Positions 15,402-43,980 are shown, counted from the stretch's first letter. The stretch is 64,000 nt of DNA from an uncultured bacterium (GCA_964556895.1 CAZKYC010000004.1:11964-75963), one strand, 5' to 3'. The notes: generated from the letters alone by a model not told the origin. Numbers and translations are program-made.

Positions 15402-15515
15402 TTTATAGTGATTGCCAAAATTCCATGCAGATTGAGTTTTTCATAATAGTCTCTATCGCTGTCCGCCGCGGCGGATACGGGCGCGCTTACCGAACATGCT
15501 TTTGACAAACGCTCT
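15402..15515 (+). repeat. 113-nt interspersed element, copy A
   Basis: Shares about 85-90% identity with copies at 24182-24292, 27540-27654 and 43868-43980, all in the same orientation. Core motif TCGCTGTCCGCCGCGGCGGATACGGGCGCGCTTACCGxACG...TTTTGACAAACGCTCT. Confidence 0.8.
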
Positions 15516-15653
15516 TGATAGTGTACCCGTATTTTTAGGGGGAAAAATCGACGTGAAACCATAAACCTTACGGTCGTGAACATACCCGCTTTCTTGTCTA
15601 CTATATATCTGTGATATAACGAGTTAGATTATAATATGTTTGTATTGTGATTA

Positions 15654-15682
15654 TTGACAAGTTTGATAAAACTTATTAAATA
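15654..15682 (+). promoter_or_regulatory. sigma70-like promoter candidate (TTGACA-N17-TAAATA)
   Basis: Perfect -35 TTGACA at 15654, 17-nt spacer, TAAATA at 15677. About 35 nt upstream of the AGGAGGG RBS and ATG 15716. Confidence 0.45.
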
Positions 15683-15715
15683 GGAAGATTGACCAAAACC
15701 TCAGGAGGGAAATAT

Positions 15716-17188
15716 ATGTTGAGGGCTTCATTTCTTTTTGTAGTAGGAAGTGTCTTGTCGTTCGCCGTGATCAATGCGAGTGCGCAGGACGTGCAGATTT
15801 TGTTGAGTGATGGCAGCGTATTCACCCCGGGTGGTGAAATTGTTGTGGGAGGCCCCGTCGAGGGCGCCTTGACGGCTGTTCCATTTGGAACCGGCCATCT
15901 AGTCGTAACCGAGTATGGCGAGATCATAGGCGTTGGTGTTGATGCGCCGTTTGAGGGTATGACCTTCCCCATGCCCATCATGAAAGATTTTATCTTGAAC
16001 CCAGACGGCTTGGGCGGGTATCTGCTCGACCAATACGGCGGCGTTCACCCCTTGGGCGACGCGGATTTTTTAGGCGCCCAATTTTATGGCACTCCGTTCA
16101 ACCCGCTGACGATTGCGCGTTCTCTCGAATTGGCGCTTGACGCCGCGGGCGAAGTGTTGGGCTATTACTCTCTCAACCGCTATGGGCAGATCAATTCGAA
16201 CGGCGCCGTGCCGATCTTGCCGGATGTTAAAACCAAAGACGCGGTTTCATTAAAGATTTCCCCGACAGGAACAGGCTATGCAATCTTGGATGACAACGGC
16301 TCAATTTTCACCTTTGGTGAAGTTTCTGCGGTTGAGTTAGAGATCGAACTCGAAAAAGGTGTGAAGGTGGTTGACTTTTCATTCACCCCGTCGGGCGAAG
16401 GTTTCTATCTGGTTGACTCATCAGGCGCAATTCACTCGACTGGCGACGCTGAAATTCTTGACGGCCTGCCCGAGTTGGCTGAAGGCGTAACCGTCGCGGG
16501 CATCTTAACCGACGTGCTGCCTGGTTCGGTCGAAAACCTGCCTGACGATGTCTCCCCGGCGCCGACCAACACGCCGACCGCAACGCCGACTCTGGCGCCT
16601 GAAGCGACCTCAACCCCGTTGCCGCCGACGGCGACCCCTGAGCCTGAAGTTCCAACCGTGACGCCTGTTCCGCCGACAGCGACCCCAGAGTCACCGATAA
16701 ATACACCTGTTCCTGGCGCCCCGACATCGACTCCATTGCCGCCAACCGCGACCCCAGTCCCACCGACGGCGACCCCAGCGCCGCCAACCGCTGTTCCTGA
16801 GTCGCCGACTGCCACTCCGACTCCTGAGTCGCCGTTTGGCACGATTGTTCCGCCGGGAATCTATGACAGTTTTCTTGGAACCTGGAACGCGCAGTTTATC
16901 AATAATATGACTGGCCAAGTTACCATGCGCCAGATTCGTATTTCGGTTCAAAACAATAACGTAGTCGCTGAAGATTTAACTTCTCCAACGTTGTTTGGAA
17001 CCAAGACATTAAATGTGATTGATCCAGGCGCGATTGGATTTACCAATGCGGGCACTTCTGGCGTTGAGTCGCTCAACTTCGCCTTAATTGGCGCGAACAC
17101 CGGCTTTACGGGAGGCTATTCGGTTTCAAGCGGCTTCCCGCCGATTCCACAAGTGTGGGCGATCACGGTTGATTTCACCAATCAGTAA
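15716..17188 (+). CDS. secreted protein with repeated beta-rich N-terminal modules, Pro/Thr-rich linker and C-terminal domain
   Basis: Signal peptide MLRASFLFVVGSVLSFAVINASA. An approximately 90-aa PT linker (PTATPTLAPEATSTPLPPTATPEP...). No recognisable catalytic motif. Confidence 0.5.
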   Translation: MLRASFLFVVGSVLSFAVINASAQDVQILLSDGSVFTPGGEIVVGGPVEGALTAVPFGTGHLVVTEYGEIIGVGVDAPFEGMTFPMPIMKDFILNPDGLGGYLLDQYGGVHPLGDADFLGAQFYGTPFNPLTIARSLELALDAAGEVLGYYSLNRYGQINSNGAVPILPDVKTKDAVSLKISPTGTGYAILDDNGSIFTFGEVSAVELEIELEKGVKVVDFSFTPSGEGFYLVDSSGAIHSTGDAEILDGLPELAEGVTVAGILTDVLPGSVENLPDDVSPAPTNTPTATPTLAPEATSTPLPPTATPEPEVPTVTPVPPTATPESPINTPVPGAPTSTPLPPTATPVPPTATPAPPTAVPESPTATPTPESPFGTIVPPGIYDSFLGTWNAQFINNMTGQVTMRQIRISVQNNNVVAEDLTSPTLFGTKTLNVIDPGAIGFTNAGTSGVESLNFALIGANTGFTGGYSVSSGFPPIPQVWAITVDFTNQ

Positions 17189-17219
17189 ATTGGCATAATT
17201 TGATAAGGAGAACATATCA

Positions 17220-18311
17220 ATGAACTATACAGGCCGTATTCTCTTATGTTTGGCAGTCGCCGCCACTGCGCTTGTTCAGCCGGCTGCACAGGCCGACGAC
17301 GCAGAAAGTTATTTCATTCGCCACACGGTGAACCGCTATTTCCCGGTCCACATGACGGCGCGCACCATGGGCATGGGCGGCGCCTTTGTCGCCATTAAGG
17401 GCGACTCAGCCTCGATTCTCGGCAACCCCGCCGGGCTTGGGCCATTGACCGATAGTTTCATGACGGGCGGCCTTCAGTATGGCCAGATCTCGGGCGACGA
17501 CCTCTCAACCTTAGACGGCGTTGATGAAGACCTCTTTGGCGGACTGTTCATGGGCGCCTACCCCATCACGGATCAATTCAGCTTTGGTTGGGGGTTTGTT
17601 CCGACCATCGGTGAAGCCGACGATTCCGCCGACCGCGAGACTGAGAATTTCTATGTTCCGCTCAGCGCCGCGTATGACGTCAGCGACGTGTTCTCAGTGG
17701 GGTATGGCATTGGCTATATCAATGACGATGTTGACGCCGACGGCTTTAACGGCGAGATGGACTTCGCCTTACTTCATCGCGTCGGCGTGTTGTTCGCTGC
17801 GTCAGACGTTCTTGACTTGGGCCTCATGGGAACCTTTGGCCATGGCGACGCCGAATCAAGCGCGGTGAACGGCGCCAGCTTCGACGGCGACCGCGAGTCG
17901 TGGAGCATCCAAGGCGGCCTCGCCTGGATGGCAACCAGCGACCTGCTGTTGGCGTTAGACCTGGCCTATGAAGATATGGAAACCGACGGGACTATCAGCA
18001 ACCGCCTGATCCCGGCGTTCCCATCGGTCGGGTTTGAAGAATCCATCGAATCGATGTCCGTTCGCGCGGGGGCTGAATACGCCTGGAACGAATGTTTGAA
18101 ACTGCGCGGCGGCGCGGGCTATACCGACTATGACTATGAAACCAACGACGCCGCTACGGCCGCATTGGTCGACGGCATTGACGGCGCCCATGTCTCGTCA
18201 GGGTTTGGCTATGAATGGAACGAAAACATCATGACCGACGTGGCGGGCATGATTCGTTTCTTTGATGAAGTCGACTTCTTGGTCGGCGCACAGTTAACCT
18301 ACAAGTTTTAG
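17220..18311 (+). CDS. putative outer-membrane beta-barrel protein
   Basis: Signal peptide. Acidic/Gly-rich alternating pattern. C-terminal ...LTYKF with terminal Phe typical of OMPs. Confidence 0.4.
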   Translation: MNYTGRILLCLAVAATALVQPAAQADDAESYFIRHTVNRYFPVHMTARTMGMGGAFVAIKGDSASILGNPAGLGPLTDSFMTGGLQYGQISGDDLSTLDGVDEDLFGGLFMGAYPITDQFSFGWGFVPTIGEADDSADRETENFYVPLSAAYDVSDVFSVGYGIGYINDDVDADGFNGEMDFALLHRVGVLFAASDVLDLGLMGTFGHGDAESSAVNGASFDGDRESWSIQGGLAWMATSDLLLALDLAYEDMETDGTISNRLIPAFPSVGFEESIESMSVRAGAEYAWNECLKLRGGAGYTDYDYETNDAATAALVDGIDGAHVSSGFGYEWNENIMTDVAGMIRFFDEVDFLVGAQLTYKF

Positions 18312-18392
18312 TTTGACGATGGGCGCAGGGCGGGTAAAAAACGCGGGGCGGTCGATTGACCGCCCCGGTGTTGAGTTGCGGTGGGGGAAAGC

Positions 18393-18445
18393 CTGATCCC
18401 TCCTGGCGCCTTCGGCGCCTTCCCCCCTTAAACAAGGGGAGCAAT
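18393..18445. repeat. REP-like GC hairpin element
   Basis: GATCCCTCCTGGCGCCTTCGGCGCCTTCCCCCCTTAAACAAGGGGAG. Member of a family also seen at 8331-8378, 8981-9035, 27458-27506, 30151-30180, and three times inside the 36.7-37.2 kb tandem array. Confidence 0.7.
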
Positions 18446-18451
18446 AAGCGC

Positions 18452-20242: not shown

Positions 20243-20549
20243 GTTGCGCTCCTTTTTTGCGGTTAAACTATCCAAAACTGGATAAATTTTCATCTATTGA
20301 CGTATCAAAGTATGGTTTATAAAAAAAGGGTAAACTTTTTTGTTTTACACAGGAAGGGTTAACTTTATATAAAGCGTATAATTTATGATCTCCAAACAAG
20401 ATAGTTAATTATGTATCTTTCTTTTTGGTTGCTTGATATATGATACCCAGCTTTTCACCAAGTGGAACCGATATGAATTTAGATTTCAGTGAATAATTTA
20501 TGGTACATACGGGTGTTTAACTATATGTTTGATTTTGATTCGATAAAGT

Positions 20550-21503: not shown

Positions 21504-21685
21504 GGCGCGAACGCTTTCAGTTTGTCTTCAATAGCGCAGCGAATGAATGTAGTTGTATCATACCCATCTCAAAGTAATATTAAGCCGCTGGCTGAAAATT
21601 CTCATCATTTTCTTACATCTCTAGGCGATAATATCAACAAAACAGTTTGGATGTCATTGTTACGCGATTTTTTTCTACTAGACGA

Positions 21686-21713
21686 TTGACTTTTAAGGAT
21701 TTGAGAATACAAT
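21686..21713 (+). promoter_or_regulatory. promoter candidate upstream of fusA (TTGACT-N16-TACAAT)
   Basis: TTGACT at 21686, 16-nt spacer, TACAAT at 21708. Would give a roughly 250-nt leader. Confidence 0.3.
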
Positions 21714-21965
21714 CCTCTGCTTGTGGCTTTAGACCAAAAGCCACCGGAATGGACGATGTAATCAGACGTTGAGTATAGCCTTCTTCGAATCCCCTTCCGT
21801 TTGAGTGGTTGTAATTCCTTGATGTTCCAGTTTCGGGAGATGTAGTGAACCGGTGAGGTCGTGTGTGAACGCGAGCGTGTAGAGCCGTGCGCACGAAACG
21901 ATGAAATTACGAAATATGAAAGAATAGAGGGCGAAGGCCCTACACCCTGTAAACGAGGAAAAATC

Positions 21966-24059
21966 ATGGCAGCAAAGATACCCCTGAATCGCGTACGCAA
22001 CATTGGAATCATGGCGCACATCGACGCCGGCAAAACCACCGTCACAGAACGAATTTTATTTTACACCGGGAAGTCGCACAAAATCGGCGAGGTGCATGAC
22101 GGCGAAGCCACCATGGATTGGATGGAGCAAGAACGCGAGCGGGGAATCACCATCACCTCTGCGGCAACCACCTGTTTTTGGCGCGATCACCGCGTCAACA
22201 TTATTGATACTCCTGGTCACGTTGACTTTACCGTTGAAGTTGAGCGTTCGTTACGCGTTCTTGACGGCGCCATTGCGCTGTTCTGCGGCGTAGCGGGCGT
22301 TGAGCCTCAAACCGAAACGGTTTGGCGCCAGGCCGAAAAATATGAAGTGCCTGTGATTGGCTTCGTCAACAAGATGGACCGCGCCGGGGCCGACTTCTTT
22401 CGCGTTCTTGAAAGTATGGAAGAACAACTCAGCGCTAACCCGGTGCCTATTGTGATTCCGATGATGAACGACGATGGCCTCGACGGCGTCATAGACTTGA
22501 TTCACAACGTCGCCCACTATTATGACGATACCAAGGGCGAGAAACGCCACGACGAGCCTGTGCCGGAAGAGTTTAAAGACGATCGTGACAAATGGTTTAA
22601 AAACCTGGTCGAAAAAGTCAGCGAAACAGACGACGCCTTGTTAGAGAAATTTTGTGAAGGTGAAGAAATCACCGACGAAGAGTTAATTGAGGGAATTCGC
22701 AGGGCGACGCTGGCGCGCGTCATGACCCCGACCCTTTGCGGTACCGCCTTTAAGAACAAAGGCGTGAAGCGCTTGCTCGACGCCGTGGTTGACTTCTTGC
22801 CGTCTCCGATTGACCTGCCTCCGGTGATTGGCTTGCATGAAGAAGAAGAAGTGACCCGCCATCCTGACCCCGACGGCCCCTTGGCGGCGTTGGCCTTTAA
22901 GGTCATGACTGACAAACATATGGGCAAGATGGTGTTCTTCCGCGTGTATTCAGGCACAATGAAAGCGGGTTCATACATTCTCAATTCAACCAAGGGCAAC
23001 AAGCAGCGCATTGGCCGCCTCTTGCAGATGCACGCCATCAAGCAGGAACAAAAAGACCAGATCGATTGCGGCGACATTGGCGTTGCGGTCGGCCTGAGCG
23101 ACACCACCACCGGCGACACGCTGTGCGACGTTAGCCATCCACTTGTTCTTGAAGCGATTGAGTTTCCCGCACCCGTTATTGCGGTCAGCATTCAACCCGA
23201 ATCAAAAGGCGACAGCGACAAACTCGGCATTGGCCTGGGCAAGTTGGCTGAAGAAGACCCGACTTTTGTGGTCAGCTCGGGTGAAGCCGAAGGCGAAACC
23301 GTCATCGCCGGCATGGGCGAACTTCACCTCGATGTCTTGGTCGACCGCCTTAAGCGAGAATTTGGCGTCTCGGCGACGGTTGGCCGCCCAGAGGTCGCCT
23401 ATCGCGAAACCATGACCAAAAATTACGACATGAACCACCGCTATGTGAAACAGTCAGGCGGAAAGGGCGACTTCGCTCACGTCACATTCAAGATCGAACC
23501 CAACCCGCCGGGCGTTGGCTTTGAATTTATCAACGACATCGTGGGCGGCGCGATTCCACGCGAATACATCCCCGCGGTTGAAAAGGGCATGATCGACGTC
23601 ATGCAGCGCGGCTGTTATGCGGGGTACCCCATTGTTGACGTAAAAGTGACGCTGTATGACGGTTCATATCACGATGTAGACTCGTCAGAGCGCGCGTTTC
23701 GCACCTGCGCCAGCCAGGCGTTTAAAGAAGCGTTTTTGAAATCGAAGCCGCAGCTGCTTGAGCCGATTATGCGCGTGTCGGTGACAACGCCGTCAGAATA
23801 CGCCGGTTCGGTCAACGGTAACCTTTCCGGCAAGCGCGGCCGCATCCAGGGCATGGACGCCTTGGGCAACGCCAACATCGTAAAAGCGATGGTGCCATTG
23901 GCTGAAATGTTTGGCTACGCGACCGAATTGCGTACCATCACCTCAGGGCGTGGTTCGTTTGTCATGCAGTTTGAACATTATGAAGCCGTTCCAAATAGCA
24001 TCGCCGAAGAAATTGTTGAAGAACGCAAAGATAAGATCAACCAACGCGGCGCCGCGTAA
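21966..24059 (+). CDS. fusA: translation elongation factor G
   Basis: G-domain motifs [17 protein letters not shown] and NKMD. Full five-domain length (697 aa). The start was set at [14 protein letters not shown] rather than the upstream track ORF start. Not adjacent to rpsL/rpsG/tuf. Confidence 0.9.
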
Positions 24060-24087
24060 TCACTCACCAGCCATACGCAAATCTAAA

Positions 24088-24115
24088 CCGGGCCTATACC
24101 AAGGCCCGGTTTTTT
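24088..24115 (+). terminator. Rho-independent terminator after fusA
   Basis: CCGGGCCT-ATACCA-AGGCCCGG stem-loop followed by TTTTTT. Confidence 0.6.
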
Positions 24116-24181
24116 GTACAGGCGCTCCCAGAGTTGCACCAAAGACGAGCATGGTTTATTTGTTCATGTGACGAATGAGAT

Positions 24182-24292
24182 CTATAGTGGTTGCTAGAAT
24201 TATGTGCGGATTGAGTTTACGTAACTGTATCTATCGCTGTTCGCCGCGGCGGATTCGGGCGTGCTTTACGCACATTTTTTGACAAACGCTCT
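24182..24292 (+). repeat. 113-nt interspersed element, copy B
   Basis: See copy A. Overlaps the stop codon of the convergent aminotransferase gene. Confidence 0.8.
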
Positions 24293-25316
24293 ATCCGGAT
24301 TTTAATGCCTCAATCACCTTTTGGTTCTCTTGTTTCGTCCCGACGCCGATGCGAAGGGCGATCTGTTCACCGCCGACGTTTTTCGTTTGGTTTGAAACAT
24401 AGATGCCCGCTTGTTTCAATCTTTGCGAAGGGTCATTCTCTGGCGGCCACAGCGAAAGAACAAAATTTGCGTACGATACCGGCGCTTCGGCGCCCAGCAG
24501 TCTCAACTGGTCCGCCAGCCATTTTCGTTGTTCGACCAGGGTGACCACCCGCCGTTTCATTTCATCGGCTTCGTCCAGCGCCGCGACGGCCGCCGCTTGG
24601 GCAATGGCGTTTACCGGAAAGGTCAACGCCGCGTTGGCCATTCGTTCGATCAGCGCTTCACCGGCGACTGCATACCCAACGCGCAGCCCCGCCAGAGAAA
24701 AACTCTTCGACAGGCTGCGAAAGATAATCAGGTCGTCGCGCTCATGAATGAGAGGGGCCAGGGTCTTTTCGCTAAATTCAAAATAACACTCGTCAATCAC
24801 TTTGACGCCGGTCAGGCGGTCTAGGATGGATACTAACTGCATGCGCGAGGTGAGTGTACCGGTGGGGTTGTTGGGGTTGGCGATGAAAGTTAAGGCTGAT
24901 TCGCTGGTGATAGACTGCGCGTCCGGTAAATTGAAATCTGGTGTTCGTTCCAGCCGGTCAACCGCGCGGTTATGCCGTTGGGCGGCGAAGCGATAGACAA
25001 AAAAACTCGGCTCAAAGGTCGCGACGGAATCGCCTTCATCGGTTAGCGCAACCACGGCGAGGTCGATCAATTCATCCGAGCCGTTGCCCACGATGATGTT
25101 CTCCGGATTCACATTGGCGCCCACATAGAGCGCCAATTTTTCGCGGAGCGCAAAACAATTTGTGTCTGGATAGCGGTTACAATATAGTGCGGCGTCAGCG
25201 ATGGCGCATTGCACATGCTCTGACGGTGGATACGGGTTCTCGCCCAGGTGTGAATAGACAGCGTTTGGCTCTCGCCAAAACGTGGGGATATCAATTCGCG
25301 GCGGCATGGTTGGCAT
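24291..25316 (-). CDS. hisC: histidinol-phosphate aminotransferase family (class II PLP aminotransferase)
   Basis: SLSKSFSLAGLRVGY (PLP-lysine region) and an NPxNPTG-like motif. 341 aa. Could alternatively be a CobD-type decarboxylase. Confidence 0.55.
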   Translation of the reverse strand: MPTMPPRIDIPTFWREPNAVYSHLGENPYPPSEHVQCAIADAALYCNRYPDTNCFALREKLALYVGANVNPENIIVGNGSDELIDLAVVALTDEGDSVATFEPSFFVYRFAAQRHNRAVDRLERTPDFNLPDAQSITSESALTFIANPNNPTGTLTSRMQLVSILDRLTGVKVIDECYFEFSEKTLAPLIHERDDLIIFRSLSKSFSLAGLRVGYAVAGEALIERMANAALTFPVNAIAQAAAVAALDEADEMKRRVVTLVEQRKWLADQLRLLGAEAPVSYANFVLSLWPPENDPSQRLKQAGIYVSNQTKNVGGEQIALRIGVGTKQENQKVIEALKSG

Positions 25317-25610
25317 GATGAGGGCCTCGTTCGGTAAAATGACATGTGCATCGTAATCCCGTCAGGTCGAAAAGGAAGAAGCCATGCCCGTTAATCGCAG
25401 CGTCGCGGTGTGGCATCTGTATTCGTATGTCAACATCGAGCGGGGGCGCGAAAACTAGAAACCATACACGAAATATTGTAGCACACTGGCGCGGGTTCAT
25501 CTCTGTGAGCGCCTGTGCATAAGAGCCTGATAGCCCGCACTGAAGTGAAGAGAGATGTACACGCGCCAGATTTATCTAAGGGGTTGTGATCGACATATCG
25601 TTAAACGCAC

Positions 25611-27392
25611 TCAGCCCTCGTCACGGCGTTCGCTGATTTTGGCCATCCGCTGTTTTGTCACATGATAGAGAAAACTTGAGGCAGTAATAAAAAAGCCAAT
25701 TTGTAAAAAGAAAACAATAATTAACATTCCTTTGTCGCGGTCTGGCGGATCAATATACTTAAAAGAAGCGAGCCAGGGCGAGACCATTGCCGCCCAAAAA
25801 ATATACCACGAATGGCTCATATCGCGAAATACGGTCATGTGAAGAATGGCGATTATGAGTGGAAACACAAAATAGGTCAGAATGACCGCGCCAAAGCCGA
25901 TGGCGTAGGCGGTGAGGGTCTTGCGGCACACGCTTGAGAGATACAAGCCAAGCATCAAGTAAAAAATTCCCACCCCAAAACATGTTAAAATAACCCAAAA
26001 GACAGTATCAATTTCAAAATAGCGCGGCATGTCGCCCAGCCAAGCCATCCACACGATGATACAAGTCGGGAAGACCAGGTAAGACCAAGCGCGCGTATTT
26101 AATTGCATCCATCCGGCCTGCAGCTTTCCCCACAACAGTTGGTCGATGGTTACTGCGGTGGTGATGAGCAGATCCCAGGTGCGGCGGTCGCGTTCGCCGC
26201 GCACGGCGTTGCAGGCATAGGGCAACACCATCAGCGGGACCAGAATCGGCGCCAGACAAAACACAAAATAGAAATATTCATATTCTTTTCTGAATAATGG
26301 AATCACTAGTATAGGAAAGAAAAACAGTGCGGCCATGGTCATCCATGAGCGAACCCGGTGGCGCCCATGGATGGCGCGGCCTTCTTTGGCGGTTACTGGG
26401 TTTTTATGGTCGGGCAGCAGACGCATGGGCGGCGCCTTGGCGGAGTAACGCTTTTCATTTTGTTTCTTTTCGCGGCGGTCGATCCAGTTGTTGATCTTGT
26501 CCTCCCAGGTGAGGACGCCGTCGCGCTGGGCCAACCGCCAAAATGAAAGCAACAACATCACCACGATCATTAGCGAATACATAATTGCGTGAGCGATGTA
26601 GGGGTGTGCACTGGCGAAATCCGTCCCGCCATAGGGGTTTCGGCCTTCAAAAAAGAAAATATAGGGGTAAACCGGGTTTAACGCCATCACCCATGCTGAG
26701 ATTTCATGAATTTGGAGTTCGTATTTCAAATATAGAGCAAAGACAAGCGAGCCTAAGAAAAAGGTGACGCCGATGATGTACGCCGCTAAGATTGAGCTGA
26801 TCACCCGCTTGCAATAGATTGAACAGGTCAGCCCCAACACCGCCACCAACAGCGACGCCTCGGTCATCATCAAAAAGACGAATAAAATCTCTTTCGGAGC
26901 AATCCCGCCCAGCGGTATTAGAATGGCGTACATCGGCAACAGCGATATGGCAATCAGCCAGATAAACGCGAGTGACGAGACCAACTTGCCAAGTATGATG
27001 CTGCCCAGCGATATATTGGTGGAGATGAGTAGGTCCCAACTATCGCGCTCTTTTTCAAGGTTGATCGCCGATGCGCTTTGTAGCGGGACCAGCAGCAAGA
27101 CGAAACTGACAAAAAACAGGTTGAGCGCCTTAAACATCTCGCGGGTGTAGTTGATCGCTAGGTTGCCCTGCATTTGTTCAAGCGCAACCGCCCAGAATAT
27201 ACAGATCGCGATTGAGCTGGCTAACAAGAATACGCAGAGTTGCCACAGCGTGCTGGGGCTGCGCAGGTGTGAGACCACTTCGCGCAGGATGACCGGGTTA
27301 TTGAATAGATTGGGCCGCTCGCGCCAGAGAAAGTGAAACGCGCGAAACAATTCTGAACGGTTAGTTTGTATAGCCCCGGTTGAATTTGACAT
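25611..27392 (-). CDS. internally duplicated ABC-2-type permease-like membrane protein
   Basis: Two repeats of a six-TM unit, each carrying an ExERDxxTWDLLITT signature (LEKERDSWDLLIST and VRGERDRRTWDLLITT). No ATPase gene adjacent. Confidence 0.4.
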   Translation of the reverse strand: MSNSTGAIQTNRSELFRAFHFLWRERPNLFNNPVILREVVSHLRSPSTLWQLCVFLLASSIAICIFWAVALEQMQGNLAINYTREMFKALNLFFVSFVLLLVPLQSASAINLEKERDSWDLLISTNISLGSIILGKLVSSLAFIWLIAISLLPMYAILIPLGGIAPKEILFVFLMMTEASLLVAVLGLTCSIYCKRVISSILAAYIIGVTFFLGSLVFALYLKYELQIHEISAWVMALNPVYPYIFFFEGRNPYGGTDFASAHPYIAHAIMYSLMIVVMLLLSFWRLAQRDGVLTWEDKINNWIDRREKKQNEKRYSAKAPPMRLLPDHKNPVTAKEGRAIHGRHRVRSWMTMAALFFFPILVIPLFRKEYEYFYFVFCLAPILVPLMVLPYACNAVRGERDRRTWDLLITTAVTIDQLLWGKLQAGWMQLNTRAWSYLVFPTCIIVWMAWLGDMPRYFEIDTVFWVILTCFGVGIFYLMLGLYLSSVCRKTLTAYAIGFGAVILTYFVFPLIIAILHMTVFRDMSHSWYIFWAAMVSPWLASFKYIDPPDRDKGMLIIVFFLQIGFFITASSFLYHVTKQRMAKISERRDEG

Positions 27393-27457
27393 AGTGTATT
27401 CGTTTAAATTATCTAATTGTTCTATGCTGATATCTGCAATCTTATCTTAAGCCTAGA

Positions 27458-27506
27458 TACCTCCTGTCCGCCTGCGGCGGCCTTCCCCGCTTGAAAAGGG
27501 GGGCGC
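27458..27506. repeat. REP-like GC hairpin element
   Basis: CTCCTGTCCGCCTGCGGCGGCCTTCCCCGCTTGAAAAGGGGGGCG. Confidence 0.7.
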
Positions 27507-27539
27507 TCTTCACCATTAACCAAAGCGATAGACCTGGTC

Positions 27540-27654
27540 TATTATAGTGGTTGCCAGAATGATGTTCGGATTGAGCTTACATACCTGTATCTTTCGCTGT
27601 CCGCCTGCGGCGGATAGGGGCGCGCTTACTGCACGCAATTTTGTCAAACGCCCT
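27540..27654 (+). repeat. 113-nt interspersed element, copy C
   Basis: See copy A. Located in a divergent intergenic region 35 nt after a REP-like element. Confidence 0.8.
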
Positions 27655-27756
27655 AGACGTCTCAATTAACGGTTCATCTCACGAAATAGTATCCTAAAAC
27701 TACGCCCTTTGTCGATTTGTTGGTATCATTATTCAATACCGTTGGGACAGAGATCA

Positions 27757-28569
27757 ATGGAGAGCAGACAAAACCAAACAACCTGCGTCGTACACGGCAA
27801 TAAGCCCGTTGCGAACGAGTGCGTCGAGTGCGGGCGCGGGTATTGCGCGGGCTGTCTGATCGAAGTCGAAGGCGAACCCTTTTGTGAGATTTGTTGGGAA
27901 CACACCCTGGCCACACTCAAGCCCGCCCAAGACCCCGAAGTGACCTATACCCCCAGCGTTCCCTGGCTCAACTGGCGCCGCATTGGCGTTTGGAACGCTT
28001 TCTGGGAAACCGCTTTTCAAACCGCCGTTCAACCGCGGGCGTTTTTTTTAAAAATCCAGTCACAGGCCGGTATCGGCGCGGCCCTGATATTCGCCCTGTT
28101 ATGTGTGATGTTTGTCTGGTACCCAATGAACATCATTTATCTGAAGCTGTTGATCCCCCCCATGCTAAACAGCATCACCCAACAAGCGGCTGAAAACCCC
28201 TCGTCGCTCGAAATGGCCGAAGAGTTGCGCGGGCGCATCGAGTCAATCACTTCGCTTGATATTCTTGCGATGCCGATCTTGTTTATTATTAACTACCTGG
28301 TGTTTTCGTCATTGATCCAACAGCTGATGATTCAGCTGATGCAGGGGCGCCAAGGCTATTCGGCAACGCTTCAGGTTCGCTGTTACGCTATGATTTCACA
28401 GGTATTTTTGCTGGTGCCGTTCTTAGGCTACTTTCTGGCAGAAATTTCGACCTTTGTGATTTGCGCGCAGGGATTTCAGTCTGCTCAGGGGCTTTCGCGG
28501 GCGCGGGCGCTGATGGTTGCGCTGGTTCCGGCCATGATTAGCTTGATTGGATTGCCCTTTTCGATATAA
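27757..28569 (+). CDS. membrane protein with N-terminal Cys4 zinc-ribbon and Yip1-like TM domain
   Basis: CVVHG...CVECGRGYCAGC...CEIC cysteine pairs followed by five hydrophobic helices. The start was set at MESRQNQ (ATG 27757). Confidence 0.35.
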   Translation: MESRQNQTTCVVHGNKPVANECVECGRGYCAGCLIEVEGEPFCEICWEHTLATLKPAQDPEVTYTPSVPWLNWRRIGVWNAFWETAFQTAVQPRAFFLKIQSQAGIGAALIFALLCVMFVWYPMNIIYLKLLIPPMLNSITQQAAENPSSLEMAEELRGRIESITSLDILAMPILFIINYLVFSSLIQQLMIQLMQGRQGYSATLQVRCYAMISQVFLLVPFLGYFLAEISTFVICAQGFQSAQGLSRARALMVALVPAMISLIGLPFSI

Positions 28570-31900: not shown

Positions 31901-31915
31901 CGTCTCCATTGAGGG

Positions 31916-32779: not shown

Positions 32780-32788
32780 GTAACTATC

Positions 32789-33175: not shown

Positions 33176-33196
33176 CCCACGGCGGCTGTTGTCACC

Positions 33197-34816: not shown

Positions 34817-34868
34817 CAGCCATCTCGAATGAATGAGTACGAATTAGGATCCAGACTTATCAATAAAT

Positions 34869-34985
34869 GAGGCTCATCCGGGATTTGGATACGTTCTCTC
34901 AAATTGAATTAAAAGTTCCCGACACGATCTCAAGGATGATTTTTTTATGGTTGTATTTGGCATGGGTACAACTCTGCTCGCTTCA
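34869..34985 (+). repeat. 120-bp direct repeat, left copy flanking bioA
   Basis: GGCTCATCCGGGATTTGGATACGTTCTCTCAAATTGAATTAAAAGTTCC...GGCATGGGTACAACTCTGCTCGCTTC. About 93% identical to 36634-36752. Confidence 0.8.
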
Positions 34986-35146
34986 GTGCGGCTCCGCCTT
35001 TTTGCACAGGCGCTCACAGAGTTGCACCCATGCCTGAGTTGGATTGTCTATTATTGATAGGACGAATATCGTTTTTTGCCCCAATCCCAGGTCATCCAGC
35101 AAGGGAAGTACTCAAATATCGGAAGAACCATAAATGACAACTCTTT

Positions 35147-36547
35147 TTAGGCCTGGGCGCCAGATTCTGCCAGCGTTTTGCCATCCAAGACCTCAGCCAT
35201 CGACTCTTCGAGCGCGTCGAACAAGAAATCAATTTCTTCGGGGGTGGTGATGAGCGGCGGAATTACCACCAGCGTATTGCCCAACGGCCGCAGCCACACC
35301 CCGCGGGTTCGCATGGCGAAGCACACCTTCGCGCCCATCTTCTGTTCGATGGGATAGGCGCGTTTCTGCGAGCGGCTTTCGGCGATGTCGATGCCCGCGA
35401 TTAACCCGATGGCGTGAATATCAGCGACGTGGTCGCTTGAGTCATACAATTGGTCAAGGCGAGTTTGCATGCGCTCGACGGCGGGCCGCATGGCGTTGAG
35501 CGAGTTGTCTTTGTCAAACAGGTCTAAACTGGCCAGCGCCGCCGCGCAGCCCATCTGGTTGCCAGTGTATGAATGGCCATGGAAGAAGGTTTTAAACTCG
35601 CCATAGTCTCCGAGAAACGATTGATAGATCGCGTCGGTCGCCAACGTCGCCGCTAGAGGCAGGTAGCCGCCGGTGATGCCCTTCGCCAGGCACAACAAGT
35701 CGGGTGTGACGCCTTCTTGTTGGCAGCCAAACAGGGCCCCGGTGCGGCCAAAGCCGACAAACACCTCGTCGCAGATTAAGAGAATATTGTATTGGCCGCA
35801 GAGTTGGCGCAGCCCCTTCAAGAAGCCAGGCGCCTGGGTTCGCAGGCCCGAGGCGCCCTGAACAATCGGCTCGATGATTACCGCCGCGCATTTCGTCGCG
35901 TGCTCTTTAAGCACAGCCTCGCAGGCGTCCAGCGCCTGTTGACTGACGGCCTCTGGGCCTTCTGGGTTGGCGTATTTTGAATAGACCGGATACGGCGCGC
36001 GATAGGTTTTGAAGAGCAACGGCCCAAAAACGCTGTGAAACAGGTCAATGCCGCCCACGCTGACGCTGCCGATGGTGTCGCCGTGGTAGGCGCCTTCAAA
36101 GGTGATAAACGAACAGCGGTTGAGGTCAGGATTCTCTTTTTGCCGCCATGATTGAAACGCCATTTTGAGGGCGACTTCAACCGAGGTCGAGCCGTTATCT
36201 GAATAAAACACTTTTGACAGTCCATCCGGCGCGGCCTCAACCAGGCGTTTCGCCAATTCAATTGCGGGCGCGTTAGACGGTCCCAATAGCGTTGAGTGGG
36301 CGATGCGTTGCGCCTGGTCATGCATCGCTTGGTTCATCTCTGGCCGGGCGTGGCCGTGAAGGTTCACCCACAGCGATGAATTGCCGTCGAAGTATTTGTT
36401 TCCCTCAGCGTCATAGAGATACACTCCCTCGCCGCGCTCGACGATGAGCGGCGGTTCGTTGGCGTAGTCTTGCATCTGAGTGAACGGGTGCCAGAGATAT
36501 TGCTTGTCCCAGTCGGCGAGAATAGATGGTTTGATTGGTTTGGTCAT
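35147..36547 (-). CDS. bioA: adenosylmethionine-8-amino-7-oxononanoate aminotransferase
   Basis: Class-III aminotransferase with BioA-specific N-terminus (WHPFTQM) and a PLP-lysine region. Confidence 0.9.
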   Translation of the reverse strand: MTKPIKPSILADWDKQYLWHPFTQMQDYANEPPLIVERGEGVYLYDAEGNKYFDGNSSLWVNLHGHARPEMNQAMHDQAQRIAHSTLLGPSNAPAIELAKRLVEAAPDGLSKVFYSDNGSTSVEVALKMAFQSWRQKENPDLNRCSFITFEGAYHGDTIGSVSVGGIDLFHSVFGPLLFKTYRAPYPVYSKYANPEGPEAVSQQALDACEAVLKEHATKCAAVIIEPIVQGASGLRTQAPGFLKGLRQLCGQYNILLICDEVFVGFGRTGALFGCQQEGVTPDLLCLAKGITGGYLPLAATLATDAIYQSFLGDYGEFKTFFHGHSYTGNQMGCAAALASLDLFDKDNSLNAMRPAVERMQTRLDQLYDSSDHVADIHAIGLIAGIDIAESRSQKRAYPIEQKMGAKVCFAMRTRGVWLRPLGNTLVVIPPLITTPEEIDFLFDALEESMAEVLDGKTLAESGAQA

Positions 36548-36633
36548 GGTTTGATTTTGATTGTTTTATATTAACGATGTAGGGGCGCAGCGCGCTGCAC
36601 CCCGAATGAACAAGAACCCATCTCAAAAATACT

Positions 36634-36752
36634 GGCTCATCCCGGATTTGGATTCGTTCTCTCAAATTGAATTAAAATTTCCTGACACGATCTCAAGGAT
36701 GATTTTTTTATCGTTGTATGTGGCATGGGTATAACTCTGCTCGCTTCGCAGC
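36634..36752 (+). repeat. 120-bp direct repeat, right copy flanking bioA
   Basis: See 34869-34985. Runs directly into the tandem array. Confidence 0.8.
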
Positions 36753-37201
36753 CGCTCACTATTCCCCAGCAATTGCTGCGAAATCGGCAGCCCTTGTGAA
36801 ATATCTTGATCCCCCCTGTCCGCCGATGGCGGCCTTCCCCCCTTAATAAGGGGGGTGTCTAGCCCCTGTTTATTTTTGAGACGGCTTCTAACTTGCTTAT
36901 TCTCACTCGTTTCGCAGCCGCTCACTATTCCCCAGCAATTGCTGCGAAATCGGCAGCCCTTGTGAAATATCTTGATCCCCCCTGTCCGCCGATGGCGGCC
37001 TTCCCCCCTTAATAAGGGGGGTGTCTAGCCCCTGTTTATTTTTGAGACGGCTTCTAACTTGCTTATTCTCACTCGTTTCGCAGCCGCTCACTATTCCCCA
37101 GCAATTGCTGCGAAATCGGCAGCCCTTGTGAAATATCTTGATCCCCCCTGTCCGCCGATGGCGGCCTTCCCCCCTTAATAAGGGGGGTGTCTAGCCCCTG
37201 T

Positions 37202-37204
<3 letters not shown>
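36736..37204. repeat. tandem direct repeat, 166-bp unit x 2.8
   Basis: Unit ...CGCAGCCGCTCACTATTCCCCAGCAATTGCTGCGAAATCGGCAGCCCTTGTGAAATATCTTGATCCCCCCTGTCCGCCGATGGCGGCCTTCCCCCCTTAATAAGGGGGGTGTCTAGCCCCTGTTTATTTTTGAGACGGCTTCTAACTTGCTTATTCTCACT. Copies are essentially identical. Each contains one REP-like hairpin. The last copy is truncated exactly at the bioD stop codon. Confidence 0.85.
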
Positions 37205-37969
<765 letters not shown>

Positions 37970-37989
37970 TTATATAGTAAACGAGAGTA

Positions 37990-39198: not shown

Positions 39199-39534
39199 GC
39201 CAAGATATGCTTGCTGGTTACACAGCAGGCGAGGCGATTATTACATACCCCAAGTTGAGTATCAACGGGCGGAGACCGAAACCGCCCTACATTTTTGTAG
39301 GGCGCGTGCGACGCGATTGCCTATCCCCAAAATTGGCAAATGCATAGAAACACGGTGGTGAATGATTCTCTTGGGTATTTGTCCGTTGTACTTCGATGAG
39401 TTTTTAATTAGTCGTGATCCCTCACAAAATCTAAACCAAGCCCTAAGCATCTTCTAATAACGGTTTAATTCGCTTCCAACATTGAGATGGATACTGGTAA
39501 CAGCAACATCTAACCAAAATTTGGAGGCAGTAGT

Positions 39535-41460
39535 ATGCAACGTATTTTCATCTTAATGATGGCCATCATGTGTCTGGCCGCCGGCGGCTGGGCAGCAACC
39601 AACAATTCTGGCAACCCCCCGACGTTTCTTCATTTAGACATCTGCACCAACGGTCTCGGCGACAACACCAGCGGCGTTGCCTTCCCTCGAATGGAAGCGG
39701 GCGTATTTGACGTTGGCGTCGACCTCGACGCTGACGGAACCATCGATCGTTGGTTGTCAGAAGAAAAGACCGAGTTTTTGGGCCGCGACAACCAAGACAA
39801 CATCAGCATCGACGGCTGGCGCCGGTTTTATATTCGGCTTGACGCCGACGCGGGCAAGATGGCGAAAATTCGCATCGTCGACCTTAGCGACGCGTTTTAC
39901 ATCGCGGTCAACGCCATCCGCCTGAACTACGCTGATGGGACCGTCGTCGCCAATGAAGTGCCCAATGGGTTCTTCGAAGACGAAGCTCCGTTGAACGGCT
40001 GGACGGTCTTAGAAGGCTCAGTCACCGACCCCGCCGCGCTCATCATCAATGACGAAAACGGCCAATACAACATGTACAGCACCAAGTTTTTCTCGTCGCG
40101 CACAGACGTCTTGAGCGCCGACAACTCAGAAACCGTCGTGATCGAATCAGACGCCTTTGAACTCAAAGCCCCCACCAGTTTTGTCTATGGCATGGTCTCG
40201 GGCGGCGGCTCTGAACTGTTCAACGTTCCCGAAGCGGGCTTGTCAGACAACGCCAGCGGCGTATTTCTCGACATCGAACCGCTCAACGGCGAATATGACG
40301 AAGGCCGCGACGTTCCTCTCACCGGCTTCTACGGCGGCAAGATCGACAACGTGCGCAACCAGATGCACCCCGTCTTTCTCAACACCTCCGGCCAAGAAGG
40401 CAAGCAATGCCAGATCGTCGCGATTGATAACTCAGAGTTTTATCACATCGGTCTCGATAGTTTTCGCATGAACTGGGACCTCGACATCATCCGCAACGGC
40501 GGGTTTGACGAAGGCGTACCGACTCCTGAAGAAGACCCCGACGCAGTCGAATGGTTTTCTGAACAAGTCATCGAACACACCCTTCACCCCAGCGGCGGCA
40601 TCCCCGGCTGGTCCGTCGAAAGCGACGCGGGCGACCCGGTTTATTACTTTGACGACGCCAGCCACGGCAGCCAGTTTTCAGGCCGAACCTTCATCGGCAC
40701 GGCTGGCAGCACCGAAGGCCGCTTCTTCACAGGAATGAAAGTGGTTTCCGACCCGTTCGCCATCACCGCCTTGCCTGACCCGGCCAACAGCATCTTCTTA
40801 CAGTTCGCGTCCGCCCAAGGCTCCGCCCGCGAGCGCTACACCGACGACGGCGGTTCAAAAGAATACGGCACCGTCGAACTTCACGTCGACGTCAACGGCA
40901 ACGGCAACTTTGACGACGCCGAAGACGCCAACTATCGTCAAATCCATCAGGGCATGGGCCAGAACTTCAACACCAGCAATATGGACTTATGGTCATACCC
41001 CGAATATCGCTTCTACATCAAGCCCGAACACTACGGCATGCCCGCCCGCATCTTTGTCGAAGACACCATGGGCCCCAGCCGCGGCAGCTATGGCTGGATG
41101 TGCGTCGACGACTTCTTTATCTGGAACGGCAGTGAAGCGGTCTTGCCTTTCCCCAACTCAGACTTTGAATTGGGCAGCATGGAAAACTGGAACGAAGAAA
41201 CCAACATCAACGGCGGCGAGCTCGACTCATGGTTGTCAGGCTCTGGCGAACTGTGGATTGACGGCTTGATCTGCCGCGATAGCAGCTGCCAGGCGGGCCA
41301 CTACGCCATGAACAACCGCCACGGTATGGCCGACGGCAACTTCGCGGCTGACTCAGCCCCCAACGAATACGCCAACGGCGACGCTGGCACAGGCACGCTG
41401 ATCTCAACCACCTTTGACTTGCCGACATTGACCACCGTTGACGAATGGAGCCTGTTCTAA
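39535..41460 (+). CDS. secreted protein with three CBM4/9-like (galactose-binding-like) modules
   Basis: Signal peptide. Three modules each begin with an NG(G)F(E/D)xxxxxxW pattern (EVPNGFFEDEAPLNGW, IIRNGGFDEGVP, FPNSDFELGSMENW) as in CBM_4_9 beta-sandwiches. Confidence 0.4.
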   Translation: MQRIFILMMAIMCLAAGGWAATNNSGNPPTFLHLDICTNGLGDNTSGVAFPRMEAGVFDVGVDLDADGTIDRWLSEEKTEFLGRDNQDNISIDGWRRFYIRLDADAGKMAKIRIVDLSDAFYIAVNAIRLNYADGTVVANEVPNGFFEDEAPLNGWTVLEGSVTDPAALIINDENGQYNMYSTKFFSSRTDVLSADNSETVVIESDAFELKAPTSFVYGMVSGGGSELFNVPEAGLSDNASGVFLDIEPLNGEYDEGRDVPLTGFYGGKIDNVRNQMHPVFLNTSGQEGKQCQIVAIDNSEFYHIGLDSFRMNWDLDIIRNGGFDEGVPTPEEDPDAVEWFSEQVIEHTLHPSGGIPGWSVESDAGDPVYYFDDASHGSQFSGRTFIGTAGSTEGRFFTGMKVVSDPFAITALPDPANSIFLQFASAQGSARERYTDDGGSKEYGTVELHVDVNGNGNFDDAEDANYRQIHQGMGQNFNTSNMDLWSYPEYRFYIKPEHYGMPARIFVEDTMGPSRGSYGWMCVDDFFIWNGSEAVLPFPNSDFELGSMENWNEETNINGGELDSWLSGSGELWIDGLICRDSSCQAGHYAMNNRHGMADGNFAADSAPNEYANGDAGTGTLISTTFDLPTLTTVDEWSLF

Positions 41461-41495
41461 GCCTCGCTGCTTAGGACGTCCTTTCAACAACTCAC

Positions 41496-41528
41496 GCTCC
41501 CATCGCCCCGGCGGTGGGAGCGTTTTTT
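41496..41528 (+). terminator. Rho-independent terminator
   Basis: GCTCCCA-TCGCCCCGGCGG-TGGGAGC followed by GTTTTTT. Confidence 0.55.
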
Positions 41529-41621
41529 ATGTGCGTGGCGCGGGCTATAATTGTCGTTCTGGTTACATTGAGATATTTATACTCATAACGCGTTTTTCGA
41601 TTCATTTTGACCGAAGGCCAA

Positions 41622-43850
41622 ATGAAAAATTTTTTTCTAGCCGGTATCGCTCTTTTATCGTTACTCTCTTCGCTCCATTCACATGCCTTTGAGCGAGTGG
41701 TATTCGCCCCGGCGGAGACGTTTGAACTCACGCCGCTGAACCCCGCCCATTTTACTGAATACATTTATTGGGCGCCGGAGGCCTTCGCCGACTTCAACGG
41801 CGACCCGTTTGAAGACTTGTTGTCGGCGTCGGGCGTAGACAACAAATTAGAATTATTTCTTCGCATTCCAAACGGCGGTTTTGAGTCGGGAAAGCTGGTG
41901 TTTCAAGCGACGCAGCCAATCGAAAGCCTCGCTGTCGGCGATTGGAACCTAGACGGCCATTCTGATTTCGCCGTTGGTTTGTTACACGATGAGACCGTCA
42001 TTGCTCTCAACCAGGGCAATGCAACATTCACGTTTATCAAAGGCCAATATGGCAGCCAAGTCGCTTCGGGCGATCTTAACAACGACGGCGCCATTGACTT
42101 GGTCGCGCTAAAAGACGGCTTTCTCTCTTGGCGTTTCGCCGCACCGGGTGAATGGAACAACAACGCCTGGCTTGAAACCCCATCAACCCTCCGCCCTCAA
42201 AGCATAGAACTGGCCGATTTTAATGGAGACGGAATTCTTGATGTTGGATCGGGAACAATAATCTATTCCATTTTTTACGGCGATGGGAATGGAGCATTTT
42301 CTGCACCCGTTGATTCTCCTTATGCCAGTCTTGGAACGATTTATCTTTCCTACACAGCCGCAGACTTAAACGGCGATGGGATGTCTGATTTATTTGGATT
42401 TCATACGCGAGACTTATACATCCCTTCTTTACAAATTTTCAATTATCTGGGTGAAGGCCTATTCAGCGACCCGTCAGAGTTTGACTTTCCCTGGATTTCT
42501 CACCAGGACCAATACGCGGTCTCTGATTTTAACGCTGACGGATTTGACGACATCGCAGCAACCATTCTCGGCGAATCAGGCCAGGGCAGCCGGGTCAGAA
42601 TCATGTATGGCCCCTACGATAACGGCTTTCAATGGATCGACGATCTCTATCAAAGCGGTTCGCAACCACTGGGGATATACGCCATCAATACGCTGCCCAA
42701 TGGCGCCGCCGACCTGATGGTGATTTTATCTGAACCTAGCCAAGCGGTGTATTTTCGCTGGATTGGCCTTCAACCAACAACGCAAAATCGCGAAGCAACG
42801 ACCCTGCGCGTCCCCGAAGACGTATTGACCTTGTCGCAGGCGCTGCGCGAGTCGATTGAAGGCGACGTCATCTCGCTGGCGCAAGGCCAGTATGACGACA
42901 ACATCGTCATCAACAACGCAACCACAACCATCAGCGGGCGGCTCAATGAAGGCCTGCCGCTTATCACAGGCGAATGGAACATCTCCAACAGCGCGATCAA
43001 CATCGACCTGATTGAGACAAACGAGACGACCATAACGGCTGACAATTCGCGGTTGAATATTTCTAGATCAAAACTCGGTGGAAGAAGTTCTGTCAGAGGC
43101 TTCCCGCGATCAACGATGCTTGGCGTCCCAAGCCGCCCTGCGCTGGTTGTAACAAACGTCAGTGGTGAAACTCTCGCTCTCGCTCATTGTGAAATACGCG
43201 GCGGTCAGGTTCTTGAGACGCCGGGTGAACCAAGTGAGGATTCAGCAAAACCCGAGAACGAAAGCAACGCCGGCGCTGCGGTTTTGATTGAGAACAACAC
43301 AAACACAGTGGCTCAATTGACAGATACGAAAATCATCGGCGGTAAAGGCTCAGCGACGGGCAATGATATTCACCTCTCGCTGCCCGGCGGGACGGGCGTG
43401 TTGGTGAGAGATTCAATGAATATTCAGCTGATGCTCAATGAATCGACGTTATCAGGCGGCGCCGGGGCTGATGTGTTTGGATATATCCCAAAAGGCGCGT
43501 CTGTTCAATACTTCTTCACTGCCACACAGCCCGGCGGGCCTTCGATTCGGTCAATACGCTCAACCGTTGAATTCCACACAGGACGCCTCGACGGCGGTGT
43601 TGGCGGCGCCGGCGGAGAGTTTCAGACGACCATCTTCAAAGACGCCGAATCTGTATTTCTCGACGGCGCAACGGGCGGCGCGGGCGCGCAAGCGTTTGAC
43701 CATTCAAGCGTCATCATTCGCGAGAGCATCCTCAACGGCGGTCTGGGCGGCGCACCCAACGGTGAATACGGCCCGCAATTCGAAACAGACGAGACCTCAA
43801 CCATTGAGCTCATCAACACAACCGCGGTAGAAAATTGGTTTTTGTATTAA
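41622..43850 (+). CDS. secreted FG-GAP/VCBS-repeat protein with C-terminal parallel beta-helix-like region
   Basis: Signal peptide MKNFFLAGIALLSLLSSLHSHA. Multiple DxNxDGxxD calcium-binding FG-GAP motifs (DWNLDGHSDF, DLNNDGAIDL, DFNGDGILDV, DLNGDGMSDL, DFNADGFDDI). The C-terminal 350 aa are Gly/Asn-rich repetitive. Confidence 0.55.
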   Translation: MKNFFLAGIALLSLLSSLHSHAFERVVFAPAETFELTPLNPAHFTEYIYWAPEAFADFNGDPFEDLLSASGVDNKLELFLRIPNGGFESGKLVFQATQPIESLAVGDWNLDGHSDFAVGLLHDETVIALNQGNATFTFIKGQYGSQVASGDLNNDGAIDLVALKDGFLSWRFAAPGEWNNNAWLETPSTLRPQSIELADFNGDGILDVGSGTIIYSIFYGDGNGAFSAPVDSPYASLGTIYLSYTAADLNGDGMSDLFGFHTRDLYIPSLQIFNYLGEGLFSDPSEFDFPWISHQDQYAVSDFNADGFDDIAATILGESGQGSRVRIMYGPYDNGFQWIDDLYQSGSQPLGIYAINTLPNGAADLMVILSEPSQAVYFRWIGLQPTTQNREATTLRVPEDVLTLSQALRESIEGDVISLAQGQYDDNIVINNATTTISGRLNEGLPLITGEWNISNSAINIDLIETNETTITADNSRLNISRSKLGGRSSVRGFPRSTMLGVPSRPALVVTNVSGETLALAHCEIRGGQVLETPGEPSEDSAKPENESNAGAAVLIENNTNTVAQLTDTKIIGGKGSATGNDIHLSLPGGTGVLVRDSMNIQLMLNESTLSGGAGADVFGYIPKGASVQYFFTATQPGGPSIRSIRSTVEFHTGRLDGGVGGAGGEFQTTIFKDAESVFLDGATGGAGAQAFDHSSVIIRESILNGGLGGAPNGEYGPQFETDETSTIELINTTAVENWFLY

Positions 43851-43867
43851 GCGCCCCGCCAGTCGCT

Positions 43868-43980
43868 TATATAATGGTTGCCAGAATTATGTGGGGATTG
43901 AGCTTAGGTAACTGTATCTTTCGCTGTCCGCCGCGGCGGATACGGGCGCGCTTACCGCACGCAATTTTGTCAAACGCTCT
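43868..43980 (+). repeat. 113-nt interspersed element, copy D
   Basis: See copy A. Followed at 44017-44040 by a CCTCCCCCAACTTGGGGGAGG hairpin just after the PmoA-family gene stop. Confidence 0.8.

Follow-up and report, generated by a model that had tools for sequence, protein, structure and literature searches.

The miniature inverted-repeat transposable elements of bacteria (MITEs) have been described as non-coding sequences of <200 bp, which carry terminal inverted repeats and 5'-TA-3' termini, are accompanied by target-site duplications and occur in size variants (PMC2229807; PMC10969869). The closest named relative in form to the repeat reported here is the Correia element of Neisseria (CREE / NEMIS), a non-coding sequence of about 107-155 bp with ~26-nt terminal inverted repeats and TA termini. 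Correia copies are dispersed and mostly intergenic, their size variants differ by an internal block (PMC10969869; PMC2229807), and no cognate transposase is known; as of a 2007 review no cognate insertion sequence (IS) had been identified (PMC2229807). RUP of pneumococcus is also non-coding and about 107 bp long, has terminal inverted repeats and TA termini, inserts at TA and occurs in high copy number in intergenic regions (PMC2229807); it has been tied to IS630-Spn1 and TA targets (PMC2229807; PMC10969869). The so-called ERIC/IRU and YPAL elements of enterobacteria are imperfect palindromes of 100-170 bp, which often lie just downstream of genes, are co-transcribed and can alter mRNA stability (PMC10969869; PMC2229807). 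We compared with these families a repeat of which four copies (c1-c4, ~112 nt each) are located in a 64-kb stretch of DNA from an uncultured bacterium (CAZKYC010000004.1:11964-75963; the whole stretch of 64,000 nt is called the window). The repeat is quite probably a MITE, that is, a family of non-autonomous DNA transposons of about 90-128 bp in Hinthialibacter-like bacteria. MITE families are an ordinary kind of element, and as far as we found none has been described earlier in this lineage; its frequent coincidence with stop codons and a left end resembling that of Correia are the only points beyond the ordinary.

Copies in the window and anatomy of the repeat

A preliminary description of this DNA had reported four copies in the same orientation with an identity of about 85-90%. 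All four were recovered on the + strand with refined boundaries, at 15404-15515 (c1, 112 nt), 24183-24293 (c2, 111 nt), 27543-27655 (c3, 113 nt) and 43870-43981 (c4, 112 nt), while their pairwise identity covers a wider range of 78-91%, far above chance. A profile built from the four copies detected only these 4 places in the window (E-values of 1e-34 to 1e-37), and the 19-nt left end gave 4 matches with up to 3 mismatches, compared to 0.01 expected. When the copies are aligned together with their flanks, the similarity begins abruptly at TATAG and ends at CGCTCTA.

The gene contexts first reported were found again. Two copies are located between divergent starts: c1 between a metallo-beta-lactamase-fold gene (14787-15401, - strand) and a gene for a 499-aa protein (about 15716-17188, + strand), and c3 between an ABC-2 permease gene (25611-27392, - strand) and a Yip1 gene (about 27709-28569, + strand). 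The other two lie between convergent ends: c2 between the genes for EF-G (21861-24059, + strand) and a hisC-like aminotransferase (24291-25316, - strand), and c4 between an FG-GAP protein gene (41607-43850, + strand) and a DUF6807/PmoA-family gene (44055-44945, - strand). The TAG stop codon of the hisC-like gene (24291-24293, - strand) is supplied by the terminal CTA of the right end of c2. The oldest-looking copy is c1, which shows an irregular right junction, CGCTCT|TGATAG. The window as a whole is a chromosomal housekeeping region containing dapB, gidB, parA and parB at 58-3265 as well as genes for PEPCK, EF-G, hisC, panBC, nadB and bioAD. The genes gidB (rsmG), parA and parB follow each other at 819-3265; this group is usually located near the chromosomal replication origin, and the whole window may sit on one replication arm.

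The ends of the element form imperfect terminal inverted repeats of 27 nt, a feature that had been overlooked in the preliminary description. The arms of the consensus match at 19/27 positions with one gap, which was reached by 0 of 2000 shuffles, and for most of the individual copies at most 3 of 2000 shuffles gave an inverted repeat as good as the one observed. The left end reads TATAGTGGTTGCCAGAATTATGTGCGG and the reverse complement of the right end TAGAGCGTTTGNCAAAA(A/T)..TGTGCG, both beginning with TA; on the + strand the left arm opens with TA-TAGTGGTTGCCAGAATTATGTGCGG and the right arm closes with CCGCACAT..TTTTGNCAAACGCTC-TA. In c4 the left arm occupies 43870-43896 on the + strand (TATAATGGTTGCCAGAATTATGTGGGG; the same 27 nt open every copy) and the right arm 43955-43981 on the - strand, where it reads TAGAGCGTTTGACAAAATTGCGTGCGG. 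Taking the copies from related genomes into account, the outermost dinucleotide is TA at the left end in 10/13 copies and at the right end in at least 9/12. The base 5' of the left end varies between T (8 copies), C (3) and A (2), and no fixed tetranucleotide is present at this position. Members of the family range in size between 90 and 128 nt, and the GC content of the element is 46-51% in comparison to a window average of about 53%. The preliminary description had called the element free of open reading frames (ORFs); frames are open in the copies, but they differ from one copy to the next and are shifted by indels, so that none is conserved.

An alignment of 12 copies showed that both ends, comprising the left 57 nt and the right ~40 nt, are conserved and that the centre is not. 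The window copies and one copy from a related genome (L041b) carry the centre TCCGCC-GC-GGCGGA, a different GC-rich central block is found in L032, L034 and L028a and a third one in L036, whereas in L028b and L031 the centre is deleted with the ends being kept. The 14-nt palindrome TCCGCCGCGGCGGA, previously described as perfect, is so in c1 and c4; it contains one mismatch in c2 and an inserted T in c3. We considered the centre as a selected hairpin and rejected this idea, as the folding of the variants' central segments does not surpass that of composition-matched shuffles (z +0.9 to -1.6). A TTGACA hexamer is positioned 9 nt from the right end. It had been assigned to the opposite strand; in fact c1 and c2 carry it on the + strand and c3 and c4 on the - strand, and its strand is thus not conserved. 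Neither the palindrome nor the hexamer is a conserved feature of the family. Built-in promoters or terminators were rejected as well, since scans for both gave no consistent signal within the element.

Related genomes and the c1 site

Because the proteins encoded in the flanks share 68-78% identity with their counterparts in Candidatus Hinthialibacter antarcticus and in three metagenomic genomes, the window can be placed, on protein similarity, in the candidate phylum Hinthialibacterota, formerly OLB16 (PMC9324843). A profile search covering about 250 kb around homologous genes in related genomes showed the family to be present, at other loci, in at least four related uncultured genomes (Ca. 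H. antarcticus and relatives). At least 9 further full or near-full copies were found in five other sources, in addition to fragments. Ca. H. antarcticus (L028) carries two copies in opposite orientations, 15 kb apart within 20.9 kb. L036/L037 contains one full copy and one right half, L041 one full, excellent copy and one decayed copy, and L040, L029 and L030 contain fragments. A metagenome scan with the left-end pattern returned copies of this element only, on four short contigs of the JGI metagenome Ga0222672 (L031-L034), each of which carries the element. Strict orientation, which the preliminary description had emphasized on the basis of the window, does not generalize to the family: it has no support, because all four copies would share a strand by chance with a probability of 1/8 and because the two L028 copies are opposed.

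In the more distant relatives L042 and L043 (48-57% protein identity, 42 kb) no copy was detected, which speaks only weakly for a narrow host range. The window-specific core had no match in a metagenome scan, and plasmid, phage and viral collections gave no real match. The central palindrome pattern had 21 matches in a genome collection; these were rejected as chance GC-rich sequences, as the profile gave only partial matches to the central stretch and none spanning the element. Contigs L022, L033 and L039 terminate inside the element, the Logan contig L022 ending 26 nt into c2, as is expected when an assembler meets a multi-copy repeat. Two of the copies in relatives stand in noteworthy surroundings. 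On L036 (1-1135) a Mu-type phage portal gene starts 29 nt away from the full copy, which is therefore bordered by a prophage, and on L040 (12680-12903) a central piece and a right half of the element share the spacer that separates the polyphosphate kinase gene from an outer-membrane protein gene.

Presence and absence of the element could be compared at the c1 site, since the window, Ca. H. antarcticus (L040) and L041 are syntenic across the spacer that separates the beta-lactamase-fold gene from the 499-aa gene. L040 can be aligned to c1's flanks on both sides and does not contain the element at this place. The best-fitting removal window comprises 110-111 nt at 15404/5-15514/5 and coincides with the ends derived from the multi-copy alignment. 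The L040 junction at the c1 site reads ACCATGTTTTTATAGTTTACCC. The empty site, TTTTTATAGTTT, is compatible with a duplication of TA, although the TA could equally belong to the element; no direct repeat longer than TA was seen flanking the copies. L041 carries at 566-676 a decayed copy orthologous to c1, which has the same orientation and shares derived bases with it (GAACAyGCTTT). Protein identity amounts to 81-84% between Ca. H. antarcticus and the L041 genome and to 72-76% between either of them and the window; these values make the former two sisters. Because Ca. H. antarcticus is sister to the genome with the decayed copy, the insertion at the c1 site is old, and Ca. H. antarcticus lost its copy later and almost exactly.

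The orthologous pair of c1 and the decayed copy (L041a) is 66% identical and the neighbouring spacer DNA 53-58%, while an identity of 84-86% is found for copies that sit at unrelated loci in different species. Since the non-orthologous copies are closer to each other than both the orthologous pair and the spacer, the family kept spreading, or was exchanged, after the species split. In L036, L038 and L039 the orthologous Yip1/ABC-2 spacer has no copy corresponding to c3, but the divergence of the DNA there prevents breakpoints from being placed exactly. Around c4 and c2 the relatives are not syntenic with the window. The Logan contig L023 was considered as an empty site of c4 and rejected: the divergence begins 24 nt past the element's right end, where another hairpin repeat has just been passed. 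This contig (2003-2124) is identical to the window up to 44005 and continues into unrelated sequence, which represents either a repeat-induced assembly junction or a structural variant or rearrangement.

Interpretation and alternatives

The repeat is small and non-coding, carries terminal inverted repeats, is dispersed over multiple unrelated loci and has filled and empty alleles with breakpoints at the ends of the element. By the features given in the reviews it qualifies as a bacterial MITE, with a duplication of TA that we infer. The preliminary description had proposed either a small structured RNA or a MITE. The second possibility is favored by the inverted repeats, the presence or absence of a 110-111-nt unit, the spread to non-orthologous loci and the internal and deletion variants; the first is not supported, as discussed below. 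A transposase encoded elsewhere would move the element in trans by binding to the two arms, integrating at TA and duplicating this dinucleotide. By analogy with RUP/IS630-Spn1 and other TA-ended bacterial MITEs, this enzyme would most likely be a DDE transposase of the IS630/Tc1-mariner type. Surviving insertions would be the harmless ones, that is, those in intergenic spacers or at the TA of a stop codon with the right end facing the gene. Effects on neighbouring genes are possible, with hairpins being placed in 3' untranslated regions or leaders and hybrid promoters arising from the TTGACA near the right end.

Several observations weigh against a MITE. No window ORF of 150 aa or more matches any transposase family, and in about 210 kb of related loci the called genes included no transposase; a full-length parent with these ends was not found either. 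The TA is invariant at both ends and so may be part of the element, the duplication being deduced rather than seen, and the right junction of c1 is irregular. The inverted repeats match at only about 70%. With 46-51% GC the element lacks the A+T richness of most bacterial MITEs described so far. Conservation covers the left 57 nt and so extends well past the inverted repeat, which a requirement for the ends only would not explain. Finally, the 'empty' L040 site is, from the protein identities, the product of a secondary loss, by excision or deletion, and not a site that had never been occupied.

RUP is the best mechanistic analogue due to its TA target, with the difference that it has a known parent IS with matching ends and none was found for the present element; the likeness is one of description only. 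ERIC and YPAL were also compared by description only: ERIC has very short terminal repeats of 7 bp, and YPAL is without TA termini and shows variable duplications.

The right end of the element coincides with stop codons. The CTA of the right end forms the TAG stop of a converging gene in 4 copies: c2 (hisC), L028a (a gene of the FGE-sulfatase family), L028b (NusG) and L032 (an ORF matching the GHMP kinase family). The truncated right-half copy in L040 ends on the TAA stop of the polyphosphate kinase gene, and L031 may be a sixth case. If insertion occurred randomly at TA dinucleotides in spacers and stop codons, 6.9% of insertions would be expected within stop codons; observing 4 or more of 12 has a P of about 0.007. 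The simplest reading would be integration at TA. An insertion into TAA or TAG would survive when the right end faces the gene, as the TA together with the G of the element (GAGCG) would restore TAG, whereas the left end facing the gene would yield TAT and lengthen the protein. Integration at TA with rebuilding of the stop codon would also explain part of the orientation pattern. As the element supplies the stop codons of several genes, annotators should not take it for a 3' untranslated region signal.

The left arm was compared with the published Correia repeat tatagtggattaacaaaaaccggtacgg (PMC5039591). The two agree in their first 8 nt, TATAGTGG, and, with one gap allowed, at 19 positions, a match reached by 0 of 5000 shuffles in a comparison that was chosen after the fact. 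For the right arm the similarity to the Correia repeat stays within chance, as 367-3763 of 5000 shuffles do equally well. Correia carries its inverted repeat at both ends, whereas the resemblance found here concerns one end only; in the interior there is no evident similarity, the comparison having covered the end repeats only. The host, a relative of Hinthialibacter, belongs to a different phylum than Neisseria, to which Correia is restricted, and the IHF site, the internal promoters and the RNase III cleavage are features described for Correia. Because the right arm does not exceed chance and the comparison was post hoc, we do not file the element as a member of Correia and treat the left end as a possible lead, not as proof of a shared transposase. 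This likeness would be a cheap lead to the Correia transposase, if a full-length parent turned up in these genomes. In other respects the repeat is an ordinary selfish element. A bolder reading combines these points: a transposon that seeks stop codons, with a right end TA|GAGCG built to remake TAG, a left end (TATAGTGG...) homologous to that of Neisseria Correia, which would point to one transposase family moving both across distant phyla, and an interchangeable central GC hairpin marking recombination between repeat families. We consider this combination unlikely.

Three further explanations were weighed against a MITE. A family of genes for small structured RNAs, or of cis-acting RNA modules, with transcription of the + strand and the paired ends as a long stem, has only a very slight chance of being correct. 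The ends of the + strand indeed pair into a long imperfect hairpin, and 3/4 copies fold somewhat better than shuffles (z -1.5 to -1.8), which is not the case for the - strand; however, pairing of the arms is expected of any inverted repeat and does not separate an RNA from a MITE, and over the single copies the + strand z reaches only 0 to -1.8. The strong conservation of the left 57 nt across species and the common strand of the four window copies would suit an RNA. Rfam yielded nothing at the gathering score, and relaxing the limit to E<=10 still brought no match that overlaps the copies. In a consensus fold of ten copies (RNAalifold), which reached -5.7 kcal/mol, the covariation term was -0.11 and a single pair of 22 was compensatory, which amounts to essentially no covariation. 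The centre is swapped or deleted in relatives, both orientations occur in L028, the contexts are unrelated and include stop codons, no promoter or terminator is consistently found inside, and the copy was cleanly lost at the orthologous c1 site, all of which speaks against an RNA. A recruitment by the host as a regulatory module, acting as an mRNA-stability element in 3' ends or leaders or as a promoter carrier and kept by selection, would be compatible with an origin as a MITE and finds some support in the right end coinciding with stop codons far above expectation, in the TTGACA hexamer 9 nt from this end and in the known effects of Correia and ERIC elements on promoters and RNase processing (PMC10969869). 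Yet the hexamer switches strand between copies, promoter-like or terminator-like sites are not consistently present, and the contexts are heterogeneous, comprising divergent starts, convergent ends and tandem genes. Moreover, identity to c1 has fallen to 66% in the decayed orthologue of L041, and Ca. H. antarcticus lost its copy, which argues against strong selection at this site. Such a role is therefore improbable.

Similarly improbable is mobilization as single-stranded DNA by an HUH (Y1) transposase, the element then being either a REPIN, in which two inverted REP sequences are moved by a RAYT (a domesticated REP-associated tyrosine transposase), or else an IS200/IS605-derived palindrome-associated element. 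Two inverted conserved arms <130 bp apart satisfy the operational search rule for REPINs (bioRxiv 10.1101/2021.07.10.451892), and REPIN-RAYT systems also resemble the present family in having two inverted conserved sequences within about 130 bp, a high copy number and persistence across related species. The centre contains GC-rich hairpins, and one of these, CTGTCCGCC..GGCGG, is common to another repeat family of the window. The location of four copies on one strand in the gidB-parA-parB region would fit a replication-strand bias; the L028 copies, 15 kb apart, have opposite orientations. REP units are hairpins and are tied to a RAYT gene, neither of which was seen here: the arms are not hairpins, have no internal dyad symmetry and no GTAG-type head, only the dispensable centre being palindromic, and none of the window ORFs of at least 150 aa encodes a Y1/RAYT-like protein. 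Shuffles fold as well as the central GC segments do, and there are persisting copies that have lost these segments. Elements derived from IS200/IS605 have no terminal inverted repeats, carry subterminal hairpins, use a fixed 4-5-nt 5' target and make no duplication, whereas the present element has terminal inverted repeats and no fixed tetranucleotide 5' of its left end.

The interpretation as a MITE adds a repeat family to a candidate phylum (Hinthialibacterota/OLB16) which is known from metagenome-assembled genomes only. The word 'transposase' is absent from the paper describing Ca. H. antarcticus (PMC9324843), a MITE survey of 183,232 genomes makes no mention of this lineage (PMC11602168), and a literature search for the exact left-end sequence returned no paper. 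In practical terms the element breaks short-read assemblies, as seen at the contig ends of L022, L033 and L039, and should be masked or modelled in binning and annotation.

Other repeats and signals in the neighbourhood

A second repeat family of ~51 nt is composed of two GC hairpins, CCTGTCCGCC..GGCGG followed by CCCCCCTTAATAAGGGGGG. Copies of this two-hairpin repeat are located in the window at 8329-8379, 8979-9029, 27453-27503, 36805-36855, 36971-37021 and 37137-37187. Its first hairpin nearly equals the central hairpin of the window MITE copies, and the copy at 27453, which is located 40 nt from c3, has an identical 17-mer, CTGTCCGCCTGCGGCGG, in common with c3. On L036 (2070-2155) the right half of the MITE, from its central hairpin onward, adjoins a preceding CCCCCCTTTTTTAGGGGGG hairpin without a gap; this looks like a junction between two repeat families.

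The spacer between a bioA-like gene (35147-36547, - strand) and a bioD-like gene (37202-37921, - strand) contains at 36740-37205 a tandem array with 2.8 copies of a 166-nt unit (99% matches), each unit holding one copy of the two-hairpin repeat. A direct repeat of 135 nt (88% identity) at 34860-34994 and 36623-36757 flanks the bioA-like gene, its second copy entering the start of the 166-nt array. Another hairpin repeat, CCTCCCCCAACTTGGGGGAGG, is found at 44005-44054, just downstream of the DUF6807 gene.

Two spacers occupied by the element also contain conserved promoter-like sequences. In the Yip1/ABC-2 spacer the block AAATCGACAAAGGGCGT....TACTAT (27686-27716, - strand) is invariant in four genomes (window, L036, L038 and L039). 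It resembles a promoter, TCGACA-N18-TACTAT, directed toward the ABC-2 gene, with c3 and the two-hairpin repeat lying in between. Upstream of the 499-aa gene, the sigma-70-like sequence TTATTGACA..(17 nt)..TAAATA (about 15640-15690) is conserved in the window, L040 and L041 and is located ~125 nt downstream of c1.

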